A stretch of DNA of 64,000 bases from PVC group bacterium. Lineage in GTDB: Bacteria; Verrucomicrobiota; Kiritimatiellia; CAIKKV01; CAITUY01. Positions 19,848 through 46,997 of this stretch are shown here, piece after piece. Within the stretch, counting starts at the first letter, position 1; every line of letters starts with the position of its first letter. The notes under the pieces are model-generated. The model did no database searches and was not told the origin of the DNA. It worked only from the letters and a program-made list of their open reading frames with translations. Position numbers and translations under genes: made by a program. The stretch lies in the NCBI GenBank assembly GCA_945870225.1, contig CAMBRF010000009.1:16321-80320 (forward strand), written 5' to 3'.

Positions 19848-19858
19848 CTTCAGGCAAA

Positions 19859-22418: not shown

Positions 22419-22434
22419 GGTCTCTCCTTCCGCG

Positions 22435-23189: not shown

Positions 23190-23222
23190 CGAACACCCTA
23201 ACCCGGCATCGCCGGGACCAAA

Positions 23223-23380: not shown

Positions 23381-23509
23381 ATCCTAACCACGTCTCGACG
23401 AATTCAATTCGTAAGAAACTAAAACCTTTTTACAACACCAGCAGCAATGTATAAGGTTCAGCCGTTATCTTCCACCCTGAATTTACAATGGCGCACGCGG
23501 AGACATACC

Positions 23510-25540
23510 ATGCAAGACAACCTCGATCGAATCACCAAATGGTTTCCCCTCGCCCTTCTGGCTGCCGCCGTGGTGGCGTATGCCAACAGCTTTTCGGGCC
23601 CCTTCATCTTCGATGACTCCAGGGCCGTCACCAACAACCCCAACCTGTACACCTTGTGGCCCCCATGGAAAGCCGTGCAAGTGCCCACTCGCTTTGTCGC
23701 GGACCTGAGTTTTGCGGTGAACTTCGCCCTGAGCGACCTGACGGCCGCCGACTACCGGATCACCAATGTTTTGATTCATGTCCTCAACGGATGGCTGCTC
23801 TTCGGCATCGTATGGAGAACCCTTTCGCTCCCCCGCTTTGCAGGCCGGTTCGACGTCGCCGCCGTGCCCCTGGCCTTTGTCGTGTCCTTGCTATGGGTGG
23901 TCCACCCGCTCCAGACGGAAAGCGTCACCTACATTGCCCAACGCATCGAAGCCCTGATGGGACTGTTTTATCTGCTGATTTTTTACTGCTTCATCCGGGG
24001 GCTCACCTCCGCCCGCCCCCGGCTGTGGATGAACGCCTCCGTGGCCGCTTGCGCGATCGGCATGGGGACGAAAGAAATCATCGTCACCGCCCCCCTGATG
24101 CTATTTCTCTATGACAGCCTGATGGTGTCCTCCTCCTGGCGCGCCGCACTCCGGGTGCGATGGAAGGTTTACCTGGCGATGCTGCTGACCCTCGGGATCT
24201 TCGCCCTGTTGCTCCTGATGGGCATGGCCCAGGCCATGGAGGCGGGCGGCCTGTTTGAGCGGGCCATTACGCCGTGGCGGTACCTGCTGACCCAGGCCGG
24301 CGTGATCCCCCATTACCTTCGCCTGTGTTTTGTCCCGACCTCGCTCTGCCTGAGTTACCGCTGGCCTTTCGCGCAGTCCCTGGCCGAAGTCTGGCGTCCT
24401 GCCTTGGTGATCGTGGGCTTGCTGATCGTCACGCTCTGGGGCCTTATTCGGCGAAGGGCCTTCGCCTTCCCCCTGGCGTGGTTTTTTGTCATTCTGGCCC
24501 CGACCTCCAGCATCATGCCGCTCTCCGATGCCGCCTTTGAACACCGCATGTATCTGCCTCTGGCGGGGGTCATCGTGCTGGTCGTTCTGGGCGGGTATGT
24601 CGCGTCGGAACGTTTCCTCAAACGGCTCCCGCGTCCGGGGGCCTGGCACCCGGTGGCCGCCATTCTGCTCGCCGTCCTGGTCACCGTGTGGTTCGTCACG
24701 CTCACGCGGGCCCGCAACCTCGATTATCGCTCGGAAGACTCCATCTGGCGTGACGTGCTCAAGAAGCGGCCCAACAATTACAAGGTAGCGGTGGCCGTAT
24801 CCGGCGCCTTGATCGGGGAAAGCAAGTTCGACGAGGCCACGGCGCTCCTGACCAACCTGTTCGCCCGGCTACCTGACTTCGCCCGGATGTCGTTCGATGA
24901 CATTCAACGCCAGTACATTCAGAATCCATCCCTCCCCTGCGTGGAATATGCGATGGGACACAACAACCTCGGGGTCGTCTACCTGAATCAGTCGCGCTGG
25001 GAAGAGGCGAAGACAGAATTCCGCGAGGCCATGCGCGTGTTCCCCGCCAACTATATCGGTTATTTCAACACGGGCCGGATCGCCTTCTTCCAGGGTAACC
25101 GACATGATGCCATCCAGTGGTGGAAGCTCTCGTTGTTGAAAAAGAAGGATGACACCGACTGCCTGTCTCTCCTGGCCTCGACGTATGCCCTGCAAGGCGA
25201 TCAGACGAATGCCATCAAGTATTATCGCAACGTCCTGAAATGGAAACCCAACCATCCCTTTGCGCGTTCACAACTGGCCTGGACGCTGGCGACCTCCGCG
25301 GAGGCGCGGCTACGCGACGGAAAGGAAGCCCTGGCCCTGGCCCGTGACCTTCCCAGGATGAGCGGCGACGCCAGTGCGCGCGCCTATGACATTCTGGCGG
25401 CAGCACTGGCCGAAACCGGCCAGTTCGAGGAAGCCGTCGCCTGCGCCGGACAAGCCCTGCGCCTGGCCCCCGGCTCCGCCGACATCGAAAAACGCCTCAA
25501 GCTCTATCAACAACGCCAGCCCTACCACGAGTCCCGATGA
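23510..25540 (+). CDS. GT-C-fold membrane glycosyltransferase-like protein with C-terminal TPR repeats (TMTC/PMT-like putative protein O-mannosyltransferase)
   Basis: About 11 TM helices. A DD motif (PFIFDDSRAV) in the first extracytoplasmic loop is typical of GT-C enzymes. C-terminal ~250 aa carry TPR repeats (YNNLGVVYLNQSRWEEAKTEFREAMRV..., ALQGDQTNAIKYYRNVLK...). Confidence 0.6.
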   Translation: MQDNLDRITKWFPLALLAAAVVAYANSFSGPFIFDDSRAVTNNPNLYTLWPPWKAVQVPTRFVADLSFAVNFALSDLTAADYRITNVLIHVLNGWLLFGIVWRTLSLPRFAGRFDVAAVPLAFVVSLLWVVHPLQTESVTYIAQRIEALMGLFYLLIFYCFIRGLTSARPRLWMNASVAACAIGMGTKEIIVTAPLMLFLYDSLMVSSSWRAALRVRWKVYLAMLLTLGIFALLLLMGMAQAMEAGGLFERAITPWRYLLTQAGVIPHYLRLCFVPTSLCLSYRWPFAQSLAEVWRPALVIVGLLIVTLWGLIRRRAFAFPLAWFFVILAPTSSIMPLSDAAFEHRMYLPLAGVIVLVVLGGYVASERFLKRLPRPGAWHPVAAILLAVLVTVWFVTLTRARNLDYRSEDSIWRDVLKKRPNNYKVAVAVSGALIGESKFDEATALLTNLFARLPDFARMSFDDIQRQYIQNPSLPCVEYAMGHNNLGVVYLNQSRWEEAKTEFREAMRVFPANYIGYFNTGRIAFFQGNRHDAIQWWKLSLLKKKDDTDCLSLLASTYALQGDQTNAIKYYRNVLKWKPNHPFARSQLAWTLATSAEARLRDGKEALALARDLPRMSGDASARAYDILAAALAETGQFEEAVACAGQALRLAPGSADIEKRLKLYQQRQPYHESR

Positions 25541-25579
25541 GCGGGGACGCGGGACAGGCCGATTGTAATTGATTGCGCG

Positions 25580-26032
25580 ATGACGCTGGGTTTATTTCTG
25601 GCCGCCCTGTTAATGGGGTTGCTGGTTCTCGCGTGGATGCTGCCGGGACTGATCCTGGTGATCATCACGGCGCTGGCTGGCGCAACAAGCATGTTCAAGG
25701 GTGCAACGCCTTCCCCCGCGATCCTGCTCGTCCTCTTCCCTCTGGCGCTCCTGGCCATCATCCCGGCCATCCTCGCCCAGCTCCGGTACAGCATGACCTA
25801 CTTCGCGCTCGCGGAGGACCCGGCCCTCGGCTCCCTGAACGCCATCGGACGCAGCAAACAGTTGATGGACGGCAACAAGTGGAAATTCTTCTGCCTGCAA
25901 TGCCGGTTCATCGGCTGGGGCCTGCTCTGCATCCCCACGCTGGGCATCGGCTTTCGCTGGCTCGCCCCCTACTACTGGACCAGCATCGCACGGTTCTATG
26001 ACGACCTGCTCGCTGGCCAGCAGTCAGGCTGA
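25580..26032 (+). CDS. Small polytopic membrane protein (DUF975-like)
   Basis: 150 aa, four hydrophobic helices; weak family assignment. Confidence 0.35.
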   Translation: MTLGLFLAALLMGLLVLAWMLPGLILVIITALAGATSMFKGATPSPAILLVLFPLALLAIIPAILAQLRYSMTYFALAEDPALGSLNAIGRSKQLMDGNKWKFFCLQCRFIGWGLLCIPTLGIGFRWLAPYYWTSIARFYDDLLAGQQSG

Positions 26033-26036
26033 GGGA

Positions 26037-26438
26037 TCAGCCGTAGGTCTTGTGGAACTTGGGATCCTTCTCCGGCTGGGCCGGCGGAACTGCCGGCGTC
26101 GCCGCCGGGGAGGCGGCGGGAGCAGCCGGCTCGGCTTTGGCTTCCGGCTTGGACTCCTTGGCGGGCAGGGCCGCTGTTTCCACGTAATTCATCCGCAGGC
26201 TGGTGAGGGTGTTCGTCAACAGGCGTGTCTCATCCCGGTCAAGGTTGCCGCGGCTCTTGGCCTCCAGCATCTCCACCATGTCAATGGTGGCCTGAGCCGC
26301 CTCAAGATTGAGTTCCGCCTTGCCGGTAATCGGGTTGATGATTTTCCCGAGCTGCTGCATGGCAGATGACGACAGCATGAGAATTAACTCGATGAAATAG
26401 GCTTTGTGCGTCTCAGAACGAGGATCTTTTTCGGCCAT
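26037..26438 (-). CDS. DUF1844-like protein with Ala/Pro-rich C-terminal tail
   Basis: Core AYFIELILMLSSSAMQQLGKIINPITGK...; tail EAKAEPAAPAASPAATPAVPPAQPEKDPK. Confidence 0.45.
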   Translation of the reverse strand: MAEKDPRSETHKAYFIELILMLSSSAMQQLGKIINPITGKAELNLEAAQATIDMVEMLEAKSRGNLDRDETRLLTNTLTSLRMNYVETAALPAKESKPEAKAEPAAPAASPAATPAVPPAQPEKDPKFHKTYG

Positions 26439-26567
26439 AACATGCCTCCTTGAATCCATCCCGGTGATTTACATACGGCTCATGCGCCCCGGCAGGGAAA
26501 ACCCTTCCCTGCCATGGCCGCACCGGCCGGTCCAACCGGCCGTTTCCGCTTCAGGCTCCCGAAGCGA

Positions 26568-26948
26568 TCAAGCCTTCCTGCGGGCCCGCAAAACGAACTG
26601 GCCCGGGGATTCTTTCTTGAACGTCTTATCGGTGTACATCTTGACGTTCAAGGCGTTGATCGGTTCCTGCGACCGCCACTGGTAACCGGTCAGCAACGAA
26701 GCCTCGTAGAGCTCCGCGACGGACATGGGCCTGCCGGCCTTCTCCAGGATACCCCGGAGCATATCCCGCAGGTTCGGCTGAGCCTTCCGGGGGACCCGCA
26801 TATTCCGCACCGACACGCTCAACGCCGGAGCGCGCCTTTCGGCCTGCTTCAAAATGGTGGCCATTTCCATTTCGAGTATCTCGACCTTCTGGCGTATCTT
26901 CAAAATCTTCTTCAGGTCATCCGCGTGCAACTCATTTAAGTTAATCAT
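26568..26948 (-). CDS. Hypothetical protein (127 aa), possibly a winged-helix DNA-binding protein
   Basis: ORF with a basic C-terminus; no recognisable domain. Confidence 0.35.
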   Translation of the reverse strand: MINLNELHADDLKKILKIRQKVEILEMEMATILKQAERRAPALSVSVRNMRVPRKAQPNLRDMLRGILEKAGRPMSVAELYEASLLTGYQWRSQEPINALNVKMYTDKTFKKESPGQFVLRARRKA

Positions 26949-27117
26949 CGAAACTCCTCCCATTTCCTTGATTTGTTTAGGGATAGTACAGCTCTCTCCC
27001 GTTTAATCAAGTAGTTAATTGAGTGACGTCCCCTAGGCAACGTTTCATGATCACAACAACCCGTATTTGCTGATGATTTTGAAGCATTTTACGAAATCGT
27101 GATTATTGAAAGTTTGC

Positions 27118-27215
27118 TCATAATCTTAATCGTAATCTTAATCATAATCCATTCTTGAGCAATAGATTACAATTACGGTTAAGATTACGATTAGGATTTC
27201 TACGGGATGCTATTG
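27118..27215. repeat. AT-rich repeat element, family A copy 1: GATTACG-type tandem hexamers plus the conserved box attaggatttctacgggatgctattg, inside a ~300-bp AT-rich island
   Basis: A near-identical 42-54 bp core recurs at 46833-46874. A local imperfect dyad (aatcttaatcgtaatcttaatcataatcc versus ggttaagattacgattaggatt) is also present. Confidence 0.6.
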
Positions 27216-27276
27216 TAGTTAATTGAGTTGATTTATGGGATTGATTCCTGTTAGCAATAGGACGCGGAGGAACCCC

Positions 27277-28401
27277 ATGCCCAGACAACGTGTACTTTGT
27301 GTCATTGGAACCCGGCCTGAAGCCATCAAGGTGGCACCGGTCGTGCTTGAACTCAGACGCCATGCCGCCGATTTCGAAACCCAGGTCATGGTGACGGGAC
27401 AGCATCGTCAGTTGCTCGACCAGATGCTCACCGTGTTCGATCTGCACCCGGATGTCGACCTGAACCTCATGCAGCCGAACCAGACGCTGCAGGATGTCAC
27501 GTCCCTGGTGATGCACGGCATGGAGAAGTATCTGTCCGCGAATCGCCCGGACGTCGTTCTGGCGCAGGGCGACACCACCACCGTCATGGCAACGGCCGTC
27601 GCCTGTTTCTATGCCCATACGGCGTTTGGCCACATCGAGGCCGGGCTCCGGACCGGGGACTGCTGGGCGCCCTACCCCGAGGAATTCAATCGCCGGGTGG
27701 CCGGACTGGTGGCGCGCTATCATTTTGCCCCGACACGCGGCTCAGCCATGAATCTCCATCGTGAGGGCATGCCGCCCTCCTCACTCTACATCACCGGCAA
27801 CACGGTTATTGATGCGCTCACCCAGGTTCTCCACCGCACCCAACCGCCCCCCTGCCCCGTGCCCAAGGGGGCCCCCTACATCCTGATGACCTGTCATCGC
27901 CGTGAGATTTTTGGCGCGCCCGTCCGCGAGGTCTTCGAAACCGTCCGGGATTTTGCACGGGCCCACCGTGACGTCTATGTCTGGTATCCCGTTCACCCGA
28001 ATCCGAACGTGCGCGGCCCGGCGCAGGAAATCCTGTCGGGCGTGCCCAACGTCCTGCTCACGGAACCGCTGGACTATATCGCCTTTCTGCACGCCATGAA
28101 CGGTGCCTACCTGATCTTGTCCGACTCCGGCGGCGTTCAGGAAGAGGCTCCGGCATTGAAGAAGCCCGTGCTGGTCCTGCGCGATGTGACGGAACGACCG
28201 GAGGGGGTGGAGGCAGGAACCTGCTTGCTGGTCGGCCCCCATCGCGACCGGATCGAGGCCGCGCTGGATCAACTGTTCTCCGACCGCGCACTGTACAACC
28301 GAATGACGAATACGCCGAATCCCTACGGCGACGGATTGGCCGCAAGGCGCATTGCCGACATTCTGGCCGGCCGCGGTCAGGAATGGCTGCTCAAGCCCTA
28401 G
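27277..28401 (+). CDS. wecB: UDP-N-acetylglucosamine 2-epimerase (non-hydrolysing)
   Basis: VLCVIGTRPEAIKVAPV...HIEAGLRT...DSGGVQEEAPALKKPVLVLRDVTERPE is the WecB/MnaA signature. Confidence 0.85.
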   Translation: MPRQRVLCVIGTRPEAIKVAPVVLELRRHAADFETQVMVTGQHRQLLDQMLTVFDLHPDVDLNLMQPNQTLQDVTSLVMHGMEKYLSANRPDVVLAQGDTTTVMATAVACFYAHTAFGHIEAGLRTGDCWAPYPEEFNRRVAGLVARYHFAPTRGSAMNLHREGMPPSSLYITGNTVIDALTQVLHRTQPPPCPVPKGAPYILMTCHRREIFGAPVREVFETVRDFARAHRDVYVWYPVHPNPNVRGPAQEILSGVPNVLLTEPLDYIAFLHAMNGAYLILSDSGGVQEEAPALKKPVLVLRDVTERPEGVEAGTCLLVGPHRDRIEAALDQLFSDRALYNRMTNTPNPYGDGLAARRIADILAGRGQEWLLKP

Positions 28402-28413
28402 CCGCTTTTAAAA

Positions 28414-31400
28414 TCAAGGTGGCGGCCAGGCTTTCAGACGATAAAACCGCCGGGGCGCTAAGTCGGGCGACGGGCGGCCATCACCCCCGTAATCCACCCA
28501 TACATCCTGGCTTCCACTGCCAATCAGGTTGGTGGCCGGTTGAAACTCTGATCCGGTCAGGGATTCCGCCCACTCGATCCGGAAGTTGAGGCCCGAGGCC
28601 GAATTCCACCCGATCATCCAGGCGGCCTCTGTCAGCGGCGACAGATTGCTGAGCGAAACGGGTATTTTTTCGAACCGCCCGCTTCCGGAAATGGTGACAG
28701 AACCTGACCAGTCGGCATCATTGACGTAATACAGGACGGCCCCATCAGCCACCTCAATCGTCCCGCTCCCGCTGATCGCCCAGCTGTAGCAGACATTGGT
28801 CACGGTCACCGTGCCGCCAACTTCGAGCCTTCCCAACGCGCGATTGGTCACAAACCCCTCAAGCTCGACACCCTGATCACGGCAATTCAGATCAATCCTG
28901 TGCAAGGCGGAAGTTGAAAAAGCAAGGGTGACGCCAAGCAGGGTCAAATCCTGATTGGTACCGGAGCAACTGAAGTCACCGGCTAGATTCAGCACGGTGT
29001 TTGAAGCCCCGGACGGGAATTCAAACTGGCCGTTGGGTCCGATCACAAACGAGCCCGCCGTTAATGAGCCGCTCTCAATGCGCAGTTTGCCGTTAAGAAT
29101 GGTGACACCCCCCGGTCCGGCGGCGTTGCTGACAGTCAGACTTGAAGACGCCCCGGACAGAACGATCTCGTTGCCGCCCGCCGAGGCGTATTGACCAATG
29201 ACCACATTGCTGCAGACGACACGTGCGCCATCTTCAATAAGCAGACGGTTATACGCCCCGTCCACGCCCACAATAAGGTCACCCGTGACCAGCAGGGTTG
29301 ATGAGGAGTCTTTAATGCGCACCTCATTGGAGACAGCCAGACTGTAATCGCCGATGACGAGGGCGTCACAGCTCGCCAGGCCACCGCCGCTGATATCGAG
29401 CCGGTTCCCCGCCCCATCCACCCCGATGCACAGCCGGTGCGTATTGGTCCAGACGGTTCCCGCACCGGTCAGACTTACACGATTTGAGCAGGCGGTATGC
29501 CCGACTCCGACCAGGCCGAACGCGCTTTCCACCCTGCCGCCGTTCTGCAGCTCGAGAACATTCCCGCAGCCCCCATTGCCCACGACGAGATGGCTACCGA
29601 GCGCCCATACGGAACCGGTGTCCCCCACAAAAACAAGATTGGCCGAACCGGACGTTACGGCGCCCAGTTCCCCATAGCGGGACTGGAGCCGGCCCCCGCT
29701 CATCACATAGAGGGCGTTGGAGAGGCCCGCCTGGCCCACCGTCACCCCGTACCGGTTGCTCCACACCGAACCCTCACCCTTGATCACCACCCCGTTGAAC
29801 GCGGAGGATTCCATCATCCCAATGACGGTATCCATGGCATCAACCGCACCGTTGGTCATCACGCCGACCGCATTATGCCGGCCACCATATCCGACAAAAA
29901 AGGTTTGCGCCCCAACCCAGGTGGATCCGGAATCGCACACCAACACGGTATTCGAACCGGAGGACGCGTCGAGTCCGATCAACGCTTCCTCGTTTGACAC
30001 GATGGCTCCGCCGCGAATGGCGAGGGAGTTACTGCCAGCCAGGTCACCCAGTACGAGATCGGCCCCCAGATTGGTTGAGCCGACAACGAATAGGCGCGTC
30101 GCGCCGGATTCATGGGGAACGGGATTGGTATGAATCGTCACCGCCTCCTCACGCGACAGCGTTCCGGGCGCAGCAAAGGTGTATCCCAGGGCCTGCATCT
30201 CCGCCACAAGGTTGGTGATTGGTCCCACGTCGTATTGAGGATGGTAATAGAAGCCGGCAACCACATCACGAACCACCTTTAACTTGCGTGCATACTCCAC
30301 CTTGTTGGAGATCGAGTAAACCAACCCGTTGGAGTCCAACTGGTTGGTGTCCGATACGTAGCGATCCAGGTTTTCAGGCAGCGTGCGGGTCCCGAGATGA
30401 TTCTGATAGACGGTGTAAGGAAACCACCTTGTCGCCACATTGGAACTCACGGCGGAGATCGCATCCAACGCCGCCCGGGACAACCCCTCGGTGCGATAGC
30501 GATGCAGACACATCCGCTCATGGGCCACCCGATAAAGACTTGAAAAGACACTATAATCCACAAGCGAAGCCTGGTAGTGCGGCGTTTCCCAGCATTCAAC
30601 CGGAAGACCGGCGCTCAGGAATTCGTTGGCGGAGTTCGTGACGCGCCCTTCGGCCCACGCCCAATTATCGTTCGTCAGCGGGCTTCGGGCGGCGTAGTCC
30701 CAGAATTCCCAGCCCTCGGCGCTGACTTTATCACCACTCTCATGGGTGTAGCCGTGGGCGGCAATGAAGGCCCCGCCCCGGATCAACGAGCGAATCTGCC
30801 TCAAGAACGGACGGTTCTGCGTCATCGGCAGGTCGGCAGGAGCCTGATTGGTGTATTGACCAATGGGGTCCCGGTATCGGGGAATAACGCCGAAGGTTCC
30901 CGAGATACCGAGCGCGGTAAGACTGGCGGCGATGCGGACCACTTTGGAAGTAGAAGTCAGCGCCGGCGCAACATCCTCGATTCGCGCAAGCCCGCGAGGT
31001 CCTTGAACCCCTTTGGACCCCATGATGTCGTGCAATAGATCCGCCAGAACCAGGCTGCGGTCACAGAGCGTCGATCCTTGGAATGGATTATCCGCCATGT
31101 ACCAAAAATTAGAGGACTTCAAAACATACGGAACCGGCGCCCTGGCCGTGTTGACCCGCGAGGTAAACACAGCCAGAACCGTCACGTTATTTGTGGGCTC
31201 CATGACCATCAAATCGGTGTTGGAGGGGGCATACAACCAATCACCTTTATAGGCGACGGAATCAAACCCGTTGGTCGTGTGAAGATAGCGTAAGCCCAGA
31301 TGCGTCGTGTCATTGGAACTCCCCAACAGCTTCCAGATGTTGTAGTTCAGCCAGACCACGGTATTGGTCGCGGTGCTGATGTCGGCCAGAAAAGCCGCAG

Positions 31401-31692
31401 AGGGCGATGCGTAATAATAGGATCCAACGTAAAAAACAGCCTCGTACGCTCTCATCTGCCCTGCGGCATAAGCGTTGACCGGAATCATGTCCACGGACGT
31501 CTTGAAGTGCCCCAGGAGATTCTCAAGCGAAAGAGCGTCCGACACCCCGCGTGAGAACGTGTTGGTGGACTCATCATAATAGACCACCGTCCGCCCGTAA
31601 GGAATATCGGCGCGCAGACAAGCCGGCGTCAGACTGATGGCCGCCACCACACCCGCCAGTCCCAAAAGATACGACTTCATGTTGCCCCGCAT
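28414..31692 (-). CDS. Giant secreted protein: DUF2334/polysaccharide-deacetylase-like N-terminal domain, an array of autotransporter-associated beta-strand repeats, and a conserved C-terminal module
   Basis: Signal peptide (MKSYLLGLAGVVAAISLTPA). N-domain carries HGYTH...ETPHY motifs. About 500 aa of G-x-G/L-x-V repeat units (GSTWVGAQTFFVGYGG..., GSVWALGSHLVVGNGG...) are typical of the autotransporter-associated beta-strand repeat. C-terminus ends ...PRRFYRLKAWPPP. Confidence 0.6.
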   Translation of the reverse strand: MRGNMKSYLLGLAGVVAAISLTPACLRADIPYGRTVVYYDESTNTFSRGVSDALSLENLLGHFKTSVDMIPVNAYAAGQMRAYEAVFYVGSYYYASPSAAFLADISTATNTVVWLNYNIWKLLGSSNDTTHLGLRYLHTTNGFDSVAYKGDWLYAPSNTDLMVMEPTNNVTVLAVFTSRVNTARAPVPYVLKSSNFWYMADNPFQGSTLCDRSLVLADLLHDIMGSKGVQGPRGLARIEDVAPALTSTSKVVRIAASLTALGISGTFGVIPRYRDPIGQYTNQAPADLPMTQNRPFLRQIRSLIRGGAFIAAHGYTHESGDKVSAEGWEFWDYAARSPLTNDNWAWAEGRVTNSANEFLSAGLPVECWETPHYQASLVDYSVFSSLYRVAHERMCLHRYRTEGLSRAALDAISAVSSNVATRWFPYTVYQNHLGTRTLPENLDRYVSDTNQLDSNGLVYSISNKVEYARKLKVVRDVVAGFYYHPQYDVGPITNLVAEMQALGYTFAAPGTLSREEAVTIHTNPVPHESGATRLFVVGSTNLGADLVLGDLAGSNSLAIRGGAIVSNEEALIGLDASSGSNTVLVCDSGSTWVGAQTFFVGYGGRHNAVGVMTNGAVDAMDTVIGMMESSAFNGVVIKGEGSVWSNRYGVTVGQAGLSNALYVMSGGRLQSRYGELGAVTSGSANLVFVGDTGSVWALGSHLVVGNGGCGNVLELQNGGRVESAFGLVGVGHTACSNRVSLTGAGTVWTNTHRLCIGVDGAGNRLDISGGGLASCDALVIGDYSLAVSNEVRIKDSSSTLLVTGDLIVGVDGAYNRLLIEDGARVVCSNVVIGQYASAGGNEIVLSGASSSLTVSNAAGPGGVTILNGKLRIESGSLTAGSFVIGPNGQFEFPSGASNTVLNLAGDFSCSGTNQDLTLLGVTLAFSTSALHRIDLNCRDQGVELEGFVTNRALGRLEVGGTVTVTNVCYSWAISGSGTIEVADGAVLYYVNDADWSGSVTISGSGRFEKIPVSLSNLSPLTEAAWMIGWNSASGLNFRIEWAESLTGSEFQPATNLIGSGSQDVWVDYGGDGRPSPDLAPRRFYRLKAWPPP

Positions 31693-31756
31693 GTTCGGTA
31701 TACTACCACAAAGTAATGGTTAGGCAAAATGGCAAACGGTCAGTTTCCGGGGCAAT

Positions 31757-34700
31757 ATGACACGAAACTTCGTTTTCATGACTCTTTGCGCGCTCCTGAC
31801 TGGTGCGGGGCTCACAACCCGGGCCGCTGACCTTGTCTTCAGCGAACTCATGTACAACCCGCTGCCTTCGTCAACCAACGCGGCGGATGATGATCAATTT
31901 GAATTCCTGGAACTGAGGAACACCTCCGCCTCGCCCATCAATCTGGGAGGGGCTTATTTTTCCGCCGGAATTACCTTTACCTTCCCAGCCGGCACGAATC
32001 TCGCCGCAGGCGCCTATGGCTTGCTGGTCCGCAGTGTGGCCTCCATGACGAACCGGTACGGCAGCCTGACCAACATCCTCGGCGTCTATACCGGCAAACT
32101 GGCCAACGAGGGCGAAACGGTAACCCTGCGCAAGGGCGATGGAACGATTCTTTTTTCCACGACCTATGATGACACCTTTCCGTGGCCGGAGGCACCGGAC
32201 GGGGAAGGCGCCTCGCTCGTGCTGACCGCACCCAATGGCGACCCCAATAGCCCCGGAAGCTGGGCGGCCAGCGATGCGTTCCAGGGAACCCCCGGCCGGG
32301 CGGGAGGGGGCTCCGCACCGGATGTTGTGATCAACGAGATCCTCGCCCACACTGATCCGCCTGACATTGATTCGGTCGAGTTACTGAACACCTCCACGCA
32401 GGCGGTTTCGGTGCTGGGCTGGTATCTGAGCGATGATCCGGTCCAGCGCCGCAAGTACCAGCTCACCCACACGGACGCCATTCAACCTGGTGGATTCCTG
32501 GTGCTGACCACCAACCAGTTTGACAGCCCCTCCGCCGTGGCCAGCAACCGGTTCGCCCTGAGCGAACTAGGCGAGACCCTCTATCTCACCTCATCAAACC
32601 TGGTGCGGTTTGCCGACTACGTGAAATTCGGGGCATCCTCGAACGGCGTGTCGCTGGGGCGTTCACCCGACGGCTGGGGAGGATTCACCTTCATGGTCAC
32701 CAATACGCTGGGGGACTCGAACGGGCTCGCCAAGGTGGGGCCGGTGGTGATCAGCGAGATCATGTACCATCCGGCCAGCGACAATCCGGCGGAAGAGTTC
32801 ATTGAACTGCTGAACATCACCGCGAGCAACGCGCCGCTTTACGATTCCGAAAGACCAACCAATACCTGGAAACTGGCCTCGGCCGTAGATTACCTGTTCC
32901 CGACCAACATCACGGTACCGGCAGGCGGGCGCCTGCTGGTCACGGGGGCAACAAATCTTACGGCGTTCCGGACAGCTTACAGCATCCCGACCAACATCCC
33001 GATCTACGGCCCCTGGACGGGGCAACTGGATAACGCCGGGGACAGTGTCCGGCTCTACAAGCCGGGCATCCCGGAACCGACCGGCTTCGTGCCACAGATC
33101 CTGGTGGACCGGGTGGATTACCTGGACGCCGCCCCGTGGCCGACGGCACCGGATGGCAGCGGTCCCTCTCTGGAACGGCGGGTGGCGACCAATACCGCCA
33201 ACGGCGCCTCCAACTGGTTTGTCGGACCACCGGGCGGTTCGCCGGGCGCAGCTCCCGCCGGTGGTTTTTTCACGCCATTGATCACACCCGCCGCCCCCGC
33301 CACGATGCAAACCTTCACCGTCACCGTCGCGGTCGTGGCGCAACCGCTGCCGACCCAGGTCGTTTGCCGGACGGTGATCAACGGGGTTACGAATAATCGG
33401 GTGATGAATGATGCGGGGCTGACCGGCGATGCGGTCGCAAGCAACCAGGTCTACACGACGGTCGTCGCAGGGGGGCTGTCCAACGCCACCTGGATGTATT
33501 ACGCCTTCGACGGCTATTCCAGCAACGGGGCCGTGTTCAGCCTGCCGGAATCGGAGGTGGAGTATCTCCCGGCGCCGACGGTCACGCTCGAGATATGCAA
33601 CGACGGACTGGCCTCCACCGTGGCGCCACTGGCCCATTGGACCTCCTATATGACCACCGGACTGGTGACCCACGCCGATTGTTTTCAGGTGTATCTGAAC
33701 GGGCCGGGTGAAGTCCTGCTGGATGACGTCTATCTGGTGGATGGCGACGGAACGAACCACATCGGCAACAGCGACTTTTCCGCCGCCTTGCCGGGATCAG
33801 GCTGGCTGACCAACAGCGGCAATCACCAGGCCTCGGCCCAGGAAGTCCCCTGGGATGAGGCGGGCAACGGCGTCCTTCATGTCCGCGCCACGGGCGCGGG
33901 AAACACCCCTGGCCATTTTTACGATTCGCTCAGCGCTTTTTTTACCCCTGATGACATGCAGGTCGGAACGCCGGCAACACTCTATTTCCAGGCGCGGCAG
34001 GTCAGCCGGAAAGTCCTTCACTGGTCCTGGGTTCAGGTGGGCAGTCCGCCGCCCGATGTCATCCTCAATGAGGTCATGTACCATCCGGTGCAAACCAACG
34101 AAGCGGATTACGAGTATGTGGAGCTTTTCAACCCGGCGACCGTGGCGGTGGATGTATCCGGATGGGATATCGAGGGAACGGGGTTCATGCTGCCGGCTGG
34201 CACAAGCCTGGCCCCGACCGGCTACCTGGTCTGCGCGGCGAATACATCGGCCGTGATGACGCTTTACGGGATCACGAACACGATCGGGAATTGGACCGGC
34301 ACGCTCCAGAATGGCGGTGAGACACTGATCCTGAAGAATACCCAGGGACGGGAACTGGACCGGTTGACGTATGACGATCTTGAGCCCTGGCCCGTGGCCG
34401 CGGATGGATACGGCCCCTCACTGGAAAGGGTCAATCCTGCGGTGACCGGGAACACCAACCTGAACTGGGCGGCGTCCGCCGCGGATACAAACTGGCAGCA
34501 GGTGGTGCTTACCAATGCGGTGGGGACCAATGCGATTCTTTCCTTTTATCTGGATTACGACGGAAAATGCTGGGTGGACGATGTGTCGGTCAAGGCCGTC
34601 GGCAGCGCGGTCGAACTGACAAGCAACGGGACCTTCGAGACGGGAATGCAGGGATGGGTCGCCACCAATAATCACTCCCAATCCCGTACCGAAACGGGAA

Positions 34701-37507
34701 TGGGGCGCGGCGGCGGACAGGCCCTGGCCCTGGTCGGGAACGCCTCGCGCTGGACGCCCGGCGATCCGCCCCGTGAATTGATTCTTTATGGGGACGGGGC
34801 CAGCAACCGGGTTTATTCGACCCCTCTGGCCGCGCAGGCCGGAACAAATTATATCCTGTCATGGTGGGTTCGCCGGCAGGGACTCGGCGACAATGTGTAT
34901 GGCGTGGTCGGCGCAACCACGGGCAAGGTAGCGTTCACGACCCAAGGTTCGCCCGGCCGTCTTAACAGCGTCCATTCAGGACTGGCCCCGTTCGGCCTCG
35001 AGCAGGGTGCGCGATCCTTCGACGTCGGCACGGTGGGCTCCACCAACATCATCCGGGCCCGGATCACACCGGCCGGTGCCGCCACCAATGTGCAGTTCCG
35101 CTACCGGGAGGTGGGATCCAACACCTATCAGTTCAGCGACGCCCAGTACACCTCCCTCACCATGCGCGATGACGGGGTGGCGCCCGACAGCGTGGCCTCT
35201 GACGGGGAGTACGCCAGCGAAGGACCGCCCGCCACCTCGGCCTGGACCCTGGTTCGCTATCAGATCCTGGCCCTGGGCACCAACGGCGTGGTCGCCACCC
35301 GCCCGGCCCAGGACGATCCCAGCACCGATTACGCCTACTGGATTCAAGGGGTCGCCGTGCAAACGAATCTGCCCGACTGGCACATGATGATGGACGGCCA
35401 TCCCCTCGCCTACCCCTTTGTCCGACGCGCCTGTGCGGTCAGCCCGAACGGACAAGCCTTCACCGACGTTTCCGTCCGGCATCGCGGACGTATTGAATCC
35501 GGAAACACCTCCTTCCGGACGGGCGTGGCGGTCCGCATGCATCGCAGTCGGCTGTTGAACGCCTGGTTCGCCAACAAACAGGGCGGCATTAATTTCCGGA
35601 ACCGGATCTATAATACCTTCACCGATTACACCCGGGTGGTCAACGAATGGCTGGGCTACGACCTGCAGCGGGTGGTCGGTCTTCCCGCACCCCGAACCCG
35701 GCATGTCTGCCTCTGGCTCAACGGGGTGCCCACCATCACCGTGGAACTGGAGGATCCCGAGGAGGACTTCCTCAAGGGAAACGGAATTGATAAGAACGAT
35801 TACGTCAGCCGGGCGGGCTGGACCGGCCGCAACCTGACCGGGGGCGACTCCGCCCTGGACAATCTCAATGACGTCAACGCCCAGTTGGATAGCGCCACAG
35901 GGGCTGCCAAGAACGACCTTGTCCGCACCAACCTGTGGTATGAGTCCATTCAGCACAGTCTGGCGCTCCTTGCGATGACCGCCAATGCGGACCAGTTTTT
36001 CGTGTGGAACATGTTCCAGCATCGTCGTGCTGCCGACGGACGCTGGGAGCAATTCCCCTGGGATGTGGATATGAGTTTCCGCACCGACACCATCATCAGC
36101 GGCCCCAACACCAATGTCCTGCCGCAATTGCATCCCTATTATCAGAACCCGCTTCATCCCAGCATCTGGGACGACACCCCGCCCCCCAGCTCCGCCGCCA
36201 GCACGCTCGGCAAAACTCTTTTCTATCCTGAAAACGGGACCGGCTCGGAATTTACCCTTCCCTACCGCCACCGCCAGCAGATGACCTTGTGGCGGTATTT
36301 CCATACCCTTCAAACCACGAATTACCTGTTCCCCAAGCTCGATACTCTTCAGGCGCAACTGCTCCCCGCGTTTATCCAGCTGGGCATCTCCCGGACGGCG
36401 TTTACCAATCAGGTGATCTCCGTGAAACAGGCGATTCTGGACCGGCGCACCTTCCTCCAGAACGGAACCTGGTCCGACAAGAACACGACCCTCTGGAATC
36501 CCACCAACATCTATGTCACCACCAACGTGGTCATTAACGAGATCATGTGCGATCCGCCGGCCGGCGGGGAATACCTGGAGCTCTACAATCGCGGTGGCCA
36601 GGCCGTGGATCTAAGCCAGTGGACCCTGCAGGCGGGCAGTGAGTCCTATCGCCTGCCTTTCGGAACCATGTTGGGGGCCACGTCCTATCTGGTGGTGGCC
36701 GATGCCCAGCCGGTGCTCACGAATTATTACACGGAACTGGGCAACGGGACCGCCTTGATTCAGCGTTATCCGGAAACACCCATCTGGGATAGCCCGCTCG
36801 TCTGGACCTCGGCGACCGAGTATGCGAGCCGCGTGCTTGAGATTCCCTCGCTCACTCTGCCCAATGCCGGCGGTTCCCTCACACTCTCCGATCTCGCCGG
36901 AACCGTGATCGATGCGGTGACCTACGGCGTCACCCCGCCGTGGCCAACAAACCCGGCCGCCTCGTTTGAACTGATCGATGCCGGGACCAACAATAACACG
37001 GGAGCCGCCTGGCGTTCCTCGGCGCTGGTCGGGACCCCCGGCTGGGTCAACACCGCGGCAGCGGACCGGGATGCCGACACCCTTCCGGATGACTGGGAAC
37101 AAGGCATCGTCGATTCCAATCCCGGGGACGGGATCACCCACGTAACCGGGGTCCTGGGCGCGGATGATTTCGATGATGACGGAGCGCCCAATGTCGTGGA
37201 ATATGTGGCCGGAACCGATCCCACCCTCGACGATGCGGATACGCTGCGGTTACGGATCGACCAGTCAAACGGCGTGATCGCCGTGGAATTCGACACCCTG
37301 CCTATTCAGGGGGACGCCTATCTGGCATTCGATGCCCGGCGTTACACCCTTGATTGGCAGCCTCAGCTCCGCCTGACCAACAACTGGGACAGTGTCGCCA
37401 ACTTCGCCGGTCTGACCGGGATCGGGCAGACGATCCTCTACACGAACGCCCTCGTCCCACCCTCCGCTTTCTACCGGTACCGGATCGAATTGCATCCCAG
37501 GCGTTAA
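31757..37507 (+). CDS. Giant secreted protein with five lamin-tail domains (LTD), a CotH-kinase-like domain and C-terminal TSP3/dockerin-like Ca-binding repeats
   Basis: Signal peptide. Five LTD signatures (LVFSELMYNP..., VVINEILAHTDPPDIDSVELLN, VVISEIMYHPASDNPAEEFIELLN, VILNEVMYHPVQTNEADYEYVELFN, VVINEIMCDPPAGGEYLELYN). A globular region at about aa 1210-1560 is CotH-like (LWLNGVPTITVELEDPEE..., FPWDVDMSF). Acidic repeats DRDADTLPDDWEQG...DDFDDDGAPNVVEY follow. C-terminus ends ...SAFYRYRIELHPRR. Confidence 0.65.
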   Translation: MTRNFVFMTLCALLTGAGLTTRAADLVFSELMYNPLPSSTNAADDDQFEFLELRNTSASPINLGGAYFSAGITFTFPAGTNLAAGAYGLLVRSVASMTNRYGSLTNILGVYTGKLANEGETVTLRKGDGTILFSTTYDDTFPWPEAPDGEGASLVLTAPNGDPNSPGSWAASDAFQGTPGRAGGGSAPDVVINEILAHTDPPDIDSVELLNTSTQAVSVLGWYLSDDPVQRRKYQLTHTDAIQPGGFLVLTTNQFDSPSAVASNRFALSELGETLYLTSSNLVRFADYVKFGASSNGVSLGRSPDGWGGFTFMVTNTLGDSNGLAKVGPVVISEIMYHPASDNPAEEFIELLNITASNAPLYDSERPTNTWKLASAVDYLFPTNITVPAGGRLLVTGATNLTAFRTAYSIPTNIPIYGPWTGQLDNAGDSVRLYKPGIPEPTGFVPQILVDRVDYLDAAPWPTAPDGSGPSLERRVATNTANGASNWFVGPPGGSPGAAPAGGFFTPLITPAAPATMQTFTVTVAVVAQPLPTQVVCRTVINGVTNNRVMNDAGLTGDAVASNQVYTTVVAGGLSNATWMYYAFDGYSSNGAVFSLPESEVEYLPAPTVTLEICNDGLASTVAPLAHWTSYMTTGLVTHADCFQVYLNGPGEVLLDDVYLVDGDGTNHIGNSDFSAALPGSGWLTNSGNHQASAQEVPWDEAGNGVLHVRATGAGNTPGHFYDSLSAFFTPDDMQVGTPATLYFQARQVSRKVLHWSWVQVGSPPPDVILNEVMYHPVQTNEADYEYVELFNPATVAVDVSGWDIEGTGFMLPAGTSLAPTGYLVCAANTSAVMTLYGITNTIGNWTGTLQNGGETLILKNTQGRELDRLTYDDLEPWPVAADGYGPSLERVNPAVTGNTNLNWAASAADTNWQQVVLTNAVGTNAILSFYLDYDGKCWVDDVSVKAVGSAVELTSNGTFETGMQGWVATNNHSQSRTETGMGRGGGQALALVGNASRWTPGDPPRELILYGDGASNRVYSTPLAAQAGTNYILSWWVRRQGLGDNVYGVVGATTGKVAFTTQGSPGRLNSVHSGLAPFGLEQGARSFDVGTVGSTNIIRARITPAGAATNVQFRYREVGSNTYQFSDAQYTSLTMRDDGVAPDSVASDGEYASEGPPATSAWTLVRYQILALGTNGVVATRPAQDDPSTDYAYWIQGVAVQTNLPDWHMMMDGHPLAYPFVRRACAVSPNGQAFTDVSVRHRGRIESGNTSFRTGVAVRMHRSRLLNAWFANKQGGINFRNRIYNTFTDYTRVVNEWLGYDLQRVVGLPAPRTRHVCLWLNGVPTITVELEDPEEDFLKGNGIDKNDYVSRAGWTGRNLTGGDSALDNLNDVNAQLDSATGAAKNDLVRTNLWYESIQHSLALLAMTANADQFFVWNMFQHRRAADGRWEQFPWDVDMSFRTDTIISGPNTNVLPQLHPYYQNPLHPSIWDDTPPPSSAASTLGKTLFYPENGTGSEFTLPYRHRQQMTLWRYFHTLQTTNYLFPKLDTLQAQLLPAFIQLGISRTAFTNQVISVKQAILDRRTFLQNGTWSDKNTTLWNPTNIYVTTNVVINEIMCDPPAGGEYLELYNRGGQAVDLSQWTLQAGSESYRLPFGTMLGATSYLVVADAQPVLTNYYTELGNGTALIQRYPETPIWDSPLVWTSATEYASRVLEIPSLTLPNAGGSLTLSDLAGTVIDAVTYGVTPPWPTNPAASFELIDAGTNNNTGAAWRSSALVGTPGWVNTAAADRDADTLPDDWEQGIVDSNPGDGITHVTGVLGADDFDDDGAPNVVEYVAGTDPTLDDADTLRLRIDQSNGVIAVEFDTLPIQGDAYLAFDARRYTLDWQPQLRLTNNWDSVANFAGLTGIGQTILYTNALVPPSAFYRYRIELHPRR

Positions 37508-38793
37508 GCCGGGCCGCCTAACGCCGCCGGGGCGTGCTTCCAGCGATAGAGGATTTCGCCCGCCCGCCGCACACAGAGGATGCCCTCCGCCTCGCGGTTC
37601 TCGTAGTCGCTGATCCTGATCGAGCGCGGATCCAGATAACCGAGGTTTACCCGGCGACAGACGGACTCGGGAATGGAGGTGGCCAGAATGACCTCGACGC
37701 GCGGCTTCTCCACGCCATTCTCGTAAGTCCCGATGCCCTTCACATGCGTCGAGTGCGCCACCACCCCCCAGGGATAATCCTTGTACTTGTCCCACTGCTT
37801 CAGGAAGAAATCCCGCGTGTGGTAGCCGATCTTCTCCAGCACGGCGCCGTGCACCGAGGACAGCTCCGTGATGTGCGGGGCATAGATGATCACCTTGCCG
37901 CCGTCCGACACCACGGGCTCAATCTTGTACATGCACTTTCCGCCGGTCCAGATGTCATCATACATTTCCGGCGCGCAGGACAAAACCGTGTGGAACGGCT
38001 TCTCCGAATAATGGGTGTGGATCTGACTGGAAAGATCCGCCGCCGCCGACCAGGCTTCCTCCGGGGTCCCGGCATAGAGACCGGCCAGTTCGTGGTTCTG
38101 GACCACCATGCAGAACGCCTTCTGCTCGATCTTCAACATGGCCGCCGCGCGATCCACCACCCGCCGCACGGGCGTCCACTTGTTGCCAATGATCACCGGA
38201 TTCGTGATCACGGCCCCGAGCCAGTGGAAGAAATCGATGATTTCCTGCCCTGCAATGCCCGGGAAGAGGTATTTTCCGCCTCCCGAGAAACCGACCACCT
38301 CGTGGGGGAATACCGGACCGATGATGACCAGCACATCGTAGTCCATCACCATCCGGTTACAGGTGATCCGCACATCCATTTCAAAACGCCCCTCCGTGAT
38401 CTCACGGACGTCGGATCGGGTAAACCGCCCCACTTCCACCAGTTGATCGGGGTTCTTCCATTCATGATTGAAAAAGCGCGCCTTGGGATAGCTCTGCGCA
38501 TGCTCGGCGGCGGTGATTCCCATTCGCTTGTGGATCTGCTCCAAGGTCAGCGGCGGGTGGGTCCCCAAAGCGATCAGGAAATCCATGAGTTTGACGCGCC
38601 CGGCCAGCCGTTCGTACAGCAGGCGGAACATCTGATCCATCGGGCAGGTCCGGGACAGGTCCGGAACAACAAACAGGACCCGCTTGCCGTCAAGGGCCCA
38701 CCGCGCCACGGCCTGATCGCAAATGGCGGCAACGTCTTTCTCAGTCAACAGGCCGTTTCGGGAACCGGCCCCCAGAAGGGTTGGGTCACTCAT
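37504..38793 (-). CDS. LarA-like protein (nickel-pincer-nucleotide-dependent lactate racemase family / DUF2088)
   Basis: About 430 aa; VVGFSGGGKYLFPGIAG and FHWLGAV-like stretches are typical of LarA homologues. No larB/larC/larE nearby. Confidence 0.55.
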   Translation of the reverse strand: MSDPTLLGAGSRNGLLTEKDVAAICDQAVARWALDGKRVLFVVPDLSRTCPMDQMFRLLYERLAGRVKLMDFLIALGTHPPLTLEQIHKRMGITAAEHAQSYPKARFFNHEWKNPDQLVEVGRFTRSDVREITEGRFEMDVRITCNRMVMDYDVLVIIGPVFPHEVVGFSGGGKYLFPGIAGQEIIDFFHWLGAVITNPVIIGNKWTPVRRVVDRAAAMLKIEQKAFCMVVQNHELAGLYAGTPEEAWSAAADLSSQIHTHYSEKPFHTVLSCAPEMYDDIWTGGKCMYKIEPVVSDGGKVIIYAPHITELSSVHGAVLEKIGYHTRDFFLKQWDKYKDYPWGVVAHSTHVKGIGTYENGVEKPRVEVILATSIPESVCRRVNLGYLDPRSIRISDYENREAEGILCVRRAGEILYRWKHAPAALGGPA

Positions 38794-39100: not shown

Positions 39101-39205
39101 CTAAAACCCAGGGACGCGGGCGGCTTGACTTTCCTCCCCCTCTTGGCAGAGAATGCAGCCGTGACAAACGACGGCATCAGCCAACCCAATGGCGGTAAAA
39201 AGGGC

Positions 39206-40981
39206 ATGACTACGGTTCCGCATGGATTGAGATTTACGGATGTCCTCCTTAAACGGGGAGCCATCAGTGAAGAGGTGTTGCATCAGGCCCAGGAGAAAGC
39301 CCACGGTCTCTCCGTGCGCCTGGAAAAGTACCTGCTGGATAATAAGCTGATCGCGCCGGCGGACATCACCCTGGGACTGGCCGAGTACCTGCACATGTCC
39401 CCCATCACCCTCTCCCAATTCTCGCCCAATCCCCAACTCATCGAGTCTTTTCCGGCCGACGTCCTGAAAAAGCATCAGGCGCTACCCCTCATGAAAATCG
39501 GCGGAACGCTGGTGGTGGCGCTGGGAGACCCGTTCGACATCGTGGCGGTGGATGAACTGCACGTCCTGACCGGACTGAACGTCACGCCCCTGGTCGCCAG
39601 TGAAAAGGAACTTCAGGACACCCTGGCCAAGGTGCTGGCAGTGCCAGAAGCCCAGCAGGATATCGACCTGGAAGACATCATGAAAGGCCCTGACAGCGAG
39701 GTCGAGGTCGGACATGATGAGAAAAACGAAGTCAGCCTTGAAGAAATGATGGAACGCGCGGAAGGTGCCCCGGTCATCCGCATGGTGAACATGATTCTGG
39801 TGGAGGCACTGAGGACACGGGCCAGTGACATTCATATTGAACCGCAGGATAAAACCTTGCGCGTACGGTACCGGCTCGACGGCGGCATGGTGGAACGGCC
39901 CAGTCCTGCCAAGAGTTTTCACGCCGCCATTGTTTCCCGTATCAAGATCATGTCGGATCTGGACATCGCGGAACGGCGCGTCCCCCAGGACGGCCGCTTC
40001 AGGATCAAGGCGCTGGGCAAAGAGGTGGACATCCGCGTCAGTATTCTCCCCTCCATCTTCGGCGAGAAAATCGTCATGCGTGTGCTGGATAAAAGCGCCC
40101 TTTTCCCCAGTTTGAGCGGATTGGGTCTGGATGAAGTTTCGTTCAAGGCCTTGTCCTACGCCATTGACCAACCACACGGCATCATCCTGGTGACCGGTCC
40201 CACGGGAAGCGGTAAGACGACCACCCTCTATTCCTGTCTTCAGGAATTGAACAAGCCCGATGTCAACATCGTGACCTGCGAGGATCCCGTTGAATACCAG
40301 TTGCTGGGACTCACCCAAGTCCAGGTGAACGCCCATGTCGGGCTGACTTTTTCCGCCGCCTTGCGGTCCATCTTACGGCAGGATCCCGATATTGTGCTGG
40401 TCGGTGAGATCCGCGATACCGAAACGGCGGAAATCGCTGTCAAGGCGGCGCTCACCGGACATCTGGTGCTCAGCACGCTGCACACCAATGATGCAGCGGG
40501 CGCCATTGCCCGATTGATCGACATGGGCATCCCGCCCTTCCTGCTCTCGTCCTCCTTGGTCCTGTCCCAAGCCCAGCGTCTTTACCGGAAATTGTGCCTT
40601 GCCTGCCGCCAGGAGGTGGCCCTGCCTGTGGATGTCCTGACGGCGAACAAAATCGATCCTGCCTTTTTCCTGCGCCAGACCGGGAAGGGAACAGAGGGCA
40701 CCGGCTCGCCGAAGGTCGCCGCTGGATATACGCCCATCTACCGGGCGGTGGGCTGCCCGAAATGCAACGGCACAGGGTACAAGGGACGAGGCGCCATCAT
40801 GGAAGTGCTCCCCATGGATGATGAGATCAAGCAGATGATCATGAAAGGCGCCACGAGCGGAGAAATCCGGACAGTCGCCCGCACCAAAGGGATGATCACC
40901 CTCAAGGAAAGCGGGCTTCAGAAGGTCAAAGAAGGGATCACGTCCCTCGAAGCGGCCCTTGAGATGACAGGCGGAGAATGA
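39206..40981 (+). CDS. Type II secretion / type IV pilus assembly ATPase (GspE/PilB family)
   Basis: T2SSE N-terminal domain, Walker A VTGPTGSGKTT, Asp box, Walker B, and a tetracysteine motif (CLACRQ...CPKCNGTGY). The ATG at 39206 is preferred over the TTG-initiated longer ORF. Confidence 0.85.
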   Translation: MTTVPHGLRFTDVLLKRGAISEEVLHQAQEKAHGLSVRLEKYLLDNKLIAPADITLGLAEYLHMSPITLSQFSPNPQLIESFPADVLKKHQALPLMKIGGTLVVALGDPFDIVAVDELHVLTGLNVTPLVASEKELQDTLAKVLAVPEAQQDIDLEDIMKGPDSEVEVGHDEKNEVSLEEMMERAEGAPVIRMVNMILVEALRTRASDIHIEPQDKTLRVRYRLDGGMVERPSPAKSFHAAIVSRIKIMSDLDIAERRVPQDGRFRIKALGKEVDIRVSILPSIFGEKIVMRVLDKSALFPSLSGLGLDEVSFKALSYAIDQPHGIILVTGPTGSGKTTTLYSCLQELNKPDVNIVTCEDPVEYQLLGLTQVQVNAHVGLTFSAALRSILRQDPDIVLVGEIRDTETAEIAVKAALTGHLVLSTLHTNDAAGAIARLIDMGIPPFLLSSSLVLSQAQRLYRKLCLACRQEVALPVDVLTANKIDPAFFLRQTGKGTEGTGSPKVAAGYTPIYRAVGCPKCNGTGYKGRGAIMEVLPMDDEIKQMIMKGATSGEIRTVARTKGMITLKESGLQKVKEGITSLEAALEMTGGE

Positions 40982-42242: not shown

Positions 42243-42568
42243 TTCACCACCCGCTTCGCTTGAGACACGGAGACACAGAGAAGAAAATGCAAATGTGGCG
42301 TTTGTTTCGTCCACGGAAATACCGTGGCCAAAATAAACGCCACGGTTTCCCGGAGGAATTCATAGAGAGGGACGAGGCCGCCCTAACCCTCTTCTTTCTC
42401 CTGAATGGCTCCAAGAGACGTTGCGGGAATTTTAGGTGCGGCTTGCCCGCCGGAGCCTTGGCGCAGGTGGGTACTCCGCAGCTTAAATGCCTGCAAACTT
42501 TCTTCTCTTCTCGGTGTCTCCGTATCTCCAGCTTGCCCGCCTGAGGCGGGCGAAGCGGGTGGTGAATC
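42243..42568. repeat. Large nested inverted-repeat element (~325 bp) in the pilC / sigma54-activator intergenic region
   Basis: A 17-bp perfect IR (ttcaccacccgcttcgc / gcgaagcgggtggtgaa) plus adjacent ~25-bp imperfect IR arms enclose a ~210-bp interior that itself holds a near-perfect hairpin (gtggcgtttgtttcgtccacgg / ccgtggccaaaataaacgccacgg). Confidence 0.55.
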
Positions 42569-46895: not shown

Positions 46896-46997
46896 ACCCC
46901 TGCTATGCGCCGTAACCGGCCCGATTCCTGCTAAAGTCTATGGGCAAGATCCTGTTTTCATGGCATAATAGTGCCGTCATAAATGCTTGGGGGGGCT

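Follow-up and report, generated by a model that had tools for sequence, protein, structure and literature searches.

The window analysed here, a stretch of DNA of 64,000 nucleotides, lies on a contig of a metagenome assembly (ENA ERZ27280308). Housekeeping genes such as those of the dcw cluster, HflX and a helicase make up most of the window, which contains three giant open reading frames, referred to below as genes A, B and C, which the first-pass annotation had singled out as encoding unrelated proteins with a common C-terminal ending. The ORF list and a Pfam/NCBIfam scan bear out both the existence of the three genes and the mutual unrelatedness of their passenger parts. Gene A (positions 28414–31692, reverse strand; 1092 aa) encodes a passenger made up of a DUF2334 domain (residues 235–494) and the T5SS/PEP-CTERM-associated repeats TIGR04393 in five stretches. 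Its hydrophobic N-terminus was read by eye as a putative Sec signal peptide, MRGNMKSYLLGLAGVVAAISLTPACLRA (31609–31692, reverse strand), and at the other end the last ~85 residues (28417–28671, reverse strand, the bounds being those of the union HMM envelope, which lies at the end of the ORF) form the FN3-like ‘FYR’ module with which this study is concerned, the protein finishing in RRFYRLKAWPPP. An identification of A as an autotransporter (T5SS) was considered on account of its TIGR04393 passenger repeats, but was rejected, as no Pfam or NCBIfam model of an autotransporter beta-domain (beta-barrel) matched the protein and just ~85 aa lie downstream of the repeats. With protein A as the query of genome contigs no relatives were found, and its tail as the query of a word-indexed search gave one candidate and zero matches.

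Gene B (31757–37507, forward strand; 1916 aa) encodes five LTD (lamin-tail) domains, CotH and choice-of-anchor X, together with a TSP3-like D-rich linker (EYVAGTDP), behind a hydrophobic N-terminus that was likewise judged by eye to be a putative Sec signal peptide, MTRNFVFMTLCALLTGAGLTTRA (31757–31825, forward strand). Its module, approximately the last 93 aa (37226–37504, forward strand; union HMM envelope), ends in SAFYRYRIELHPRR and contains an extra hairpin (GDAYLAFDARR) in the interval between strands 2 and 3. This type of tail is kept in all 16 orthologues (P0064–P0079), and a metagenome scan with the C-terminal 500 aa of B returned one full-length relative only. Gene C had been placed correctly but for its start, 46998, which is an internal Met; the longest ORF runs from 46983 to 49529 on the forward strand and encodes 848 aa, with two DUF7901 domains as the passenger and a putative Sec signal peptide, MLGGAMRTRLLFTSWLVAASLVMGTSVLA (46983–47069, forward strand), again a by-eye reading of a hydrophobic N-terminus. 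The module of C comprises its last 81 aa (49284–49526, forward strand), with six predicted strands, and ends in TFFRIIQK. The C family numbers 63 matches, the named homologues coming from Kiritimatiellae and Verrucomicrobia metagenome-assembled genomes, and 55 of the 63 carry a tail of ~75 aa ending in [FY]YR[VI]. These tails fall into two subtypes: sub1, which is C-like (SVGDxGAGVQxLQxxTNLxxxxW...FYRIxQK), and sub2, which ends in FYRVvAPyxPPPP and is resembled by the tail of A with its ending RFYRLKAWPPP.

Among the real genes of the window, only A, B and C have [FYW][FYW]R in their last 25 residues. The same ending is also present on two spurious antisense ORFs of the window. The placing of F-[YF]-R within about 10 residues of the stop was upheld, the Arg being followed by 7 residues in A, 10 in B and 4 in C, and a conserved Trp does precede the motif; however, the interval between the two is 18–29 residues rather than 25–45, and the module as a whole measures about 80–93 aa rather than 50–70 aa. 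Pairwise BLASTP among the three tails gave nothing significant, a MAFFT alignment of the three alone was poor, and HMMs built from a single subtype (sub1 or sub2) failed to detect A, B or the other subtype. Profile–profile comparison related sub1 to sub2 (95%, E 4e-8), the tail of A to sub1 (86%, E 5e-6) and the B family to sub1 (84%, E 7e-6), with the motifs in register in every pairing of tails and subtypes, and in the comparisons involving the A tail, the B family, sub1 and sub2 the maxima of 60 column-shuffled controls were 15–21, against 26–44 observed. The first-pass annotation had named the lack of any profile alignment among the tails as evidence against a shared module, and this is contradicted by the significant profile–profile scores.

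The tail of A and those of the B and C families, 58 in all, were combined in one profile for an exhaustive search of 1.84 billion cluster representatives. At E≤1e-3 this gave 4117 proteins, of which 152 also passed E≤1e-10, with up to 11 matched stretches in the best proteins. The canonical unit of these proteins is ITSIxxxNGxAxITWxSxxGQxYRLQYKxxLxDxxWxDxxPxVTATGxxTxxTNxxGxxxQRFYRV, typical units also reading ITWNS for ITWxS and WQD for WxD, and the units are arranged head-to-tail with short Pro-rich linkers. Thirty units from the best matches, supplied by different proteins and with A, B, C and their homologues left out, constitute a canonical reference profile. When compared by hhalign with this profile, whose units had been retrieved by a profile including the three tails and are hence not a fully independent sample, the tail of A alone gave 96.7% (E 3.7e-10, 73 columns), the tails of the B-orthologue family 95.5% (E 1.4e-8, 70 columns), the C-type sub1 tails 95.2% (E 2.6e-8, 77 columns) and sub2 99.4% (E 3.8e-21, 76 columns). 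The tail of B alone gave 77% (E 2e-5, 53 columns), and that of C alone was not significant (5.7%, 19 columns). Forty column-shuffled controls did not exceed 15.6 score units, against 46–108 observed, and hmmsearch of all ORFs of 34 loci with the canonical HMM detected the tail of A (E 7e-6) as well as the tail of a C orthologue. Because these profile–profile scores (95–97% for the three genes or their families against the canonical profile) are far above those of the shuffles and the alignments span nearly the whole domain, the proposal of a shared C-terminal module is confirmed at the level of profile comparison, by which the last 80–93 residues of A, B and C are divergent copies of one domain family; as judged from sequence, the own tail of C is tied to the family only via its homologues. 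With B and C represented by their families, all three proteins combine a profile match over most of the unit with an aromatic–aromatic–Arg final strand near the C-terminus.

The best 150 of the 4117 proteins were inspected, a set biased to multi-copy, high-scoring proteins, and a local re-scan covered the 140 new proteins among them. Tandem arrays of 2–11 copies were present in 103 of these 140 best-matching proteins, and in 136 of the 140 the last copy lay no more than 12 residues from the protein end, long sequence beyond the last copy being seen in three. A TM-like stretch in the last 35 residues was found in 0 of 140. The aromatic–Arg motif was followed by 4–7 residues in 102 of 127 proteins, and the final residue was Pro in 92 of the same number. 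With respect to the middle copies, which share an identity of 0.58 among themselves, the terminal copy is more divergent (0.42) than the first copy (0.53), and the last copy had the lower identity of the two in 18 of 25 arrays, a difference that may simply come from lying at the edge of the array. That the canonical unit has a subtype confined to terminal copies was considered and rejected, as clustering mixes terminal with internal copies. The passengers of the carrier proteins include S8 subtilases with P-domains, PPC, Big_9/cadherin/MBG, LRR with PATR, YDG, FG-GAP, and DUF7901 with GEVED; where an organism is named, for a handful of proteins from metagenome-assembled genomes, it belongs to the Verrucomicrobiota (Pedosphaera, Luteolibacter, Verrucomicrobiia) or the Kiritimatiellae. 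P0091 as the query of genome contigs led to two loci only.

The structure of the module was approached by modelling the tail of C in AlphaFold2 with 42 family tails, which gave a pLDDT of 89.6 and a pTM of 0.76. Six strands are predicted in this tail (MIKEILRN, QTSLKSVG, QIIQFC, VDLATN, NFWGNFT and FFRIIQ), with the conserved Trp ahead of strand 4 and F-F-R within the last strand. The top fold matches of the module were FN3 domains, in keeping with an FN3-like/Ig-like beta-sandwich, and a Foldseek search of the PDB gave none that were significant (best E 0.06). The tail of A, modelled with the alignment of the C family, reached a pLDDT of only 58, and no confident model was obtained. The C-tail model shows the module, at about 75–90 residues, as a predicted FN3-like beta-sandwich of six strands. 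It had been suggested that the aromatic–Arg motif serves as a terminal sorting signal, and an equal occurrence at internal positions had been named beforehand as speaking against this. Indeed, the motif is found in 71 of 80 internal copies of the arrays versus 74 of 80 terminal copies. Being equally kept in internal copies, F-[YF]-R is therefore structural; it is the core of the last strand in every copy and not a terminal tag. A sorting or anchoring role of the module itself is plausible.

Endings of the ‘...RFYRL’ type are familiar on proteins of Pedosphaera and Chthoniobacter, and we know of no named family for them. No Pfam or NCBIfam model matched the last ~80 residues of A, B or C, the canonical units gave only scattered sub-threshold noise against the same collections, no PDB sequence matching the module was found, and a full-text search of the literature for the module produced nothing relevant; the family is thus one for which the copies of Pfam-A and NCBIfam that were searched hold no model. 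A number of known families were considered individually and rejected. Pfam fn3 (PF00041) gave no match on the modules, whether the threshold was E≤0.1 or E≤1, and its match in P0089 lies in another, N-terminal region. The T9SS C-terminal domain (CTD) models PF18962/TIGR04183 and PF13585/TIGR04131 were without a match on A, B and C at E≤0.1; CHU_C, the positive control, scored 30.8–36.5 bits (cutoff 27) when applied to LTD-protein tails of other contigs. A scan of the greater part of the ORFs of the window showed no T9SS core genes (PorV, Sov/SprA, PorU and others). The single copy expected of a T9SS CTD is also at variance with the arrays, since among the 140 re-scanned proteins the end position holds in 136, yet 103 carry 2–11 copies. 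The original judgement that the endings are not PEP-CTERM, LPXTG or T9SS CTDs therefore stands: for PEP-CTERM, LPXTG and tripartite signals there was no HMM match and no TM-like stretch, and the tails consist of a beta-strand followed by 4–10 polar or Pro residues. Dockerin type I (PF00404) had no match on A, B or C.

The other genes of the window were of interest as candidate machinery, as the first-pass annotation had pointed to two T2SS/type-IV-pilus-like gene sets as possible partners of the module. An ATPase gene (39125–40981) reaches neither the PilB nor the GspE cutoff and is ambiguous between the two; PilC/GspF, a sigma-54 regulator and pilins are also present, and a scan of most ORFs of the window did not detect a secretin. 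The contig of the closest relative keeps the order B – ATPase – PilC – regulator – pilin – Metallophos – HflX, without gene C, and no pilus genes were found within 10 kb of the more distant homologues of B and C. As synteny is not conserved beyond this closest relative, a link of the module to the pilus/T2SS-like gene sets was rejected as unsupported. A and the homologues of B are located near GT2/TPR/deacetylase genes of exopolysaccharide type.

Relatives that lack the module give an indication of what its position in the protein is used for. Five DUF7901 homologues, of which one is a named Phycisphaerae protein, end instead in D-x-N-x-D-G repeats, and Dockerin_1 matches three of the four such tails tested (best 23.5 bits versus a cutoff of 22.9); in LTD proteins encoded on other metagenome contigs, the C-terminus is formed by the CHU_C T9SS signal domain. 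The same logic of swapping within one slot has identified sorting signals before. Dockerin-like and CHU_C tails in the slot of the module are circumstantial evidence that fits a localisation role, and a surface tether better than an export signal. Our current working hypothesis, in which we place about as much belief as doubt, is that the domain or array would be a cell-surface localisation module, a stalk or tether. The carrier would be exported by Sec and would then cross the outer membrane; the domain or array would hold the passenger (protease, adhesin repeats, LTD–CotH, deacetylase or DUF7901) at the cell surface; and the last copy may contact an envelope component, by analogy with the way in which dockerins, SLH repeats and the processed T9SS CTD place proteins elsewhere.

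What counts against a tether is that FN3-like domains are often plain spacers. A generic FN3-like linker or stalk, whose C-terminal position would be a by-product of tandem duplication at the 3′ end of the gene, would account for the fold, for tandem arrays with short Pro-rich linkers, for a structural motif present in all copies and for the resemblance of the terminal tail to the start of an inter-repeat linker. However, spacers normally lie between modules, yet 136 of the 140 best-matching arrays reach the C-terminus; the single-copy cases (A, B, C and 70-odd homologues) have nothing to space; and other lineages place localisation modules in this C-terminal slot. We consider a mere spacer somewhat unlikely. 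It is less likely still that the domain is a dedicated secretion signal, the terminal copy acting, by analogy with the T9SS, as the CTD for a lineage-specific outer-membrane translocon and possibly being cleaved later. The strict C-terminal position with its stereotyped tail of 4–7 residues and usually a final Pro, the CHU_C T9SS domains in the same slot in other lineages, a size and beta-sandwich fold resembling T9SS CTDs, and the greater divergence of the terminal copy are all consistent with such a signal, but it is difficult to reconcile with 2–11 near-identical tandem copies that all have the motif, arrays of this kind being absent from known export signals. There is, moreover, no T9SS-type HMM match and no candidate machinery nearby, the pilus/T2SS-like genes not being conserved neighbours and no secretin having been detected among the ORFs scanned. 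That the module is CBM-like and binds extracellular polysaccharide or the cell's own exopolysaccharide rather than the cell envelope is very unlikely: CBMs commonly occur as C-terminal tandem repeats of a beta-sandwich, canonical units give faint sub-threshold echoes of CBM31 in Pfam, and A and the homologues of B adjoin the exopolysaccharide-type genes, but neither sequence nor fold gave a significant CBM match, FN3 domains being the top fold matches, and most passengers are proteases and adhesin-like repeats and not glycoside hydrolases.

The domain looks to be among the commonest that large secreted proteins carry in environmental Verrucomicrobia, a weak profile having retrieved at least 4117 clusters at 50% identity. 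With a curated HMM, thousands of giant proteins now called ‘hypothetical’ would gain a C-terminal annotation, and the likely surface or secreted proteome of these polysaccharide-degrading and poorly studied phyla could be approached in silico. The end-of-protein rule, the Pro terminus and the exchange with dockerin-like and T9SS tails make a C-terminal localisation system of the PVC bacteria's own a directly testable proposition. More speculatively, and with a probability that we judge to be low, the terminal copy may be a functional analogue of the T9SS CTD, marking cargo for a secretion-and-attachment pathway of the Verrucomicrobiota/Kiritimatiellota that is as yet undescribed and has its own outer-membrane machinery, in which case F-Y-R-[VIL]-x3-Pro-COOH would be a recognition or processing site and the domain would define the surface proteome of these phyla. 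If the domain is only a stalk repeat, the finding is one of ordinary domain bookkeeping.

A comparison with known systems places the module close to several of them. From Pfam fn3 it differs in having six rather than seven predicted strands, in the position of its Trp ahead of strand 4, in Q-R-F-Y-R-V within the last strand and in its strict C-terminal placement. With the Haft-type sorting signals (PEP-CTERM/exosortase, LPXTG/sortase and GlyGly-CTERM) there is an association through the passengers, TIGR04393 in A and choice-of-anchor X in B being named after alternative anchors, whereas the module is without their succession of motif, TM helix and basic cluster. Dockerin, SLH, CWB2 and GW modules are unrelated to it in sequence and fold, and no cohesin or secondary cell-wall polymer partner can be proposed for the module, but these too are repeats at the C-terminus of secreted proteins, and a dockerin-like tail replaces the module in some DUF7901 homologues. 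The T9SS CTDs have conserved motifs other than those of this family, in which there are tandem arrays with internal copies, and the named carriers of the family are Verrucomicrobiota/Kiritimatiellae and not Bacteroidota; nevertheless, T9SS CTDs and the module have in common that a beta-sandwich of ~70–100 aa forms the very end of multidomain proteins that are exported by Sec and vary greatly in their passengers, and in homologues of the LTD protein they occupy the same slot.

The proteins that end in the C-terminal FN3-like domain with an aromatic-Arg motif in its last strand (family set P0084–P0223) have a stereotyped stop point, with only 4–7 residues separating the aromatic-Arg from the C-terminus. 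In 92 of 127 such proteins the final residue is proline, and the tail of gene A from the window ends in PPP directly before the stop codon (28417–28425). This terminal proline may be merely the first proline of a linker, or else it may represent a processing or protection feature. Where family members carry several copies of the domain (for example P0085, P0087, P0092 and P0135), the last copy is the more divergent, its identity to the middle copies being 0.42 as against 0.53 for the first copy and 0.58 for middle copies compared with each other. This divergence could be an edge effect or could reflect a specialised terminal copy. Further variation is seen within the tails of gene C homologues, one branch of which (including P0013, P0015, P0016, P0018 and P0019) has STG[YH]CGCG in place of SVGDxGAG; the Cys-x-Cys, which is conserved in this branch and lies in the loop preceding strand 3, is possibly a disulfide or metal site.

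Elsewhere in the window, the dcw cluster of cell-division and cell-wall genes is present in full at 1005–12085 on the minus strand (mraZ, rsmH, ftsL-like, ftsI, murE, murF, mraY, murD, a LysM protein gene and ftsW). Three pseudopilin-like genes are found at 14996–18670, encoding a PilV-like protein of 138 aa, an unusually large protein of 687 aa with an N-methylation motif, and a 409 aa protein weakly resembling GspK. The last of the three genes runs into the beginning of the ORF for a PAS histidine kinase at 18516. The ORFs at 13471–14739 (minus strand), 49833–50315 (plus), 54054–54812 (minus) and 42260–42544 (plus) gave no Pfam match, and the first and last of these no NCBIfam match either; their GC3 is coding-like.

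The contig of the closest relative, which carries the gene B orthologue P0064, shares with the window the gene order LTD protein, ATPase, PilC, regulator, pilin, Metallophos, HflX, 157 aa gene, RdgC and GT2. Because this order is kept without gene C (46983–49529, plus strand) between HflX and the 157 aa gene, gene C is a variable insertion; the LarA-like gene (37504–38793) is also absent from that contig. At another locus, L031, the gene C orthologue adjoins a giant PATR-repeat protein of 4803 aa (15547–22592, minus strand), the end of which lacks the FN3-like module and reads PPDVPGSTFGIR up to the stop.

Gene A, for a deacetylase-like DUF2334 protein, lies beside gene B, for an LTD-CotH protein, in divergent orientation, and GT2, TPR and UDP-GlcNAc 2-epimerase genes adjoin the two (22435–37507). 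A gene B homologue at a second locus (L033, 1622–17371) likewise adjoins genes for a PilZ-GT2 synthase and a giant TPR protein, as well as one of the Polysacc_deac_1/DUF2334 type. These neighbourhoods suggest an exopolysaccharide-related locus.
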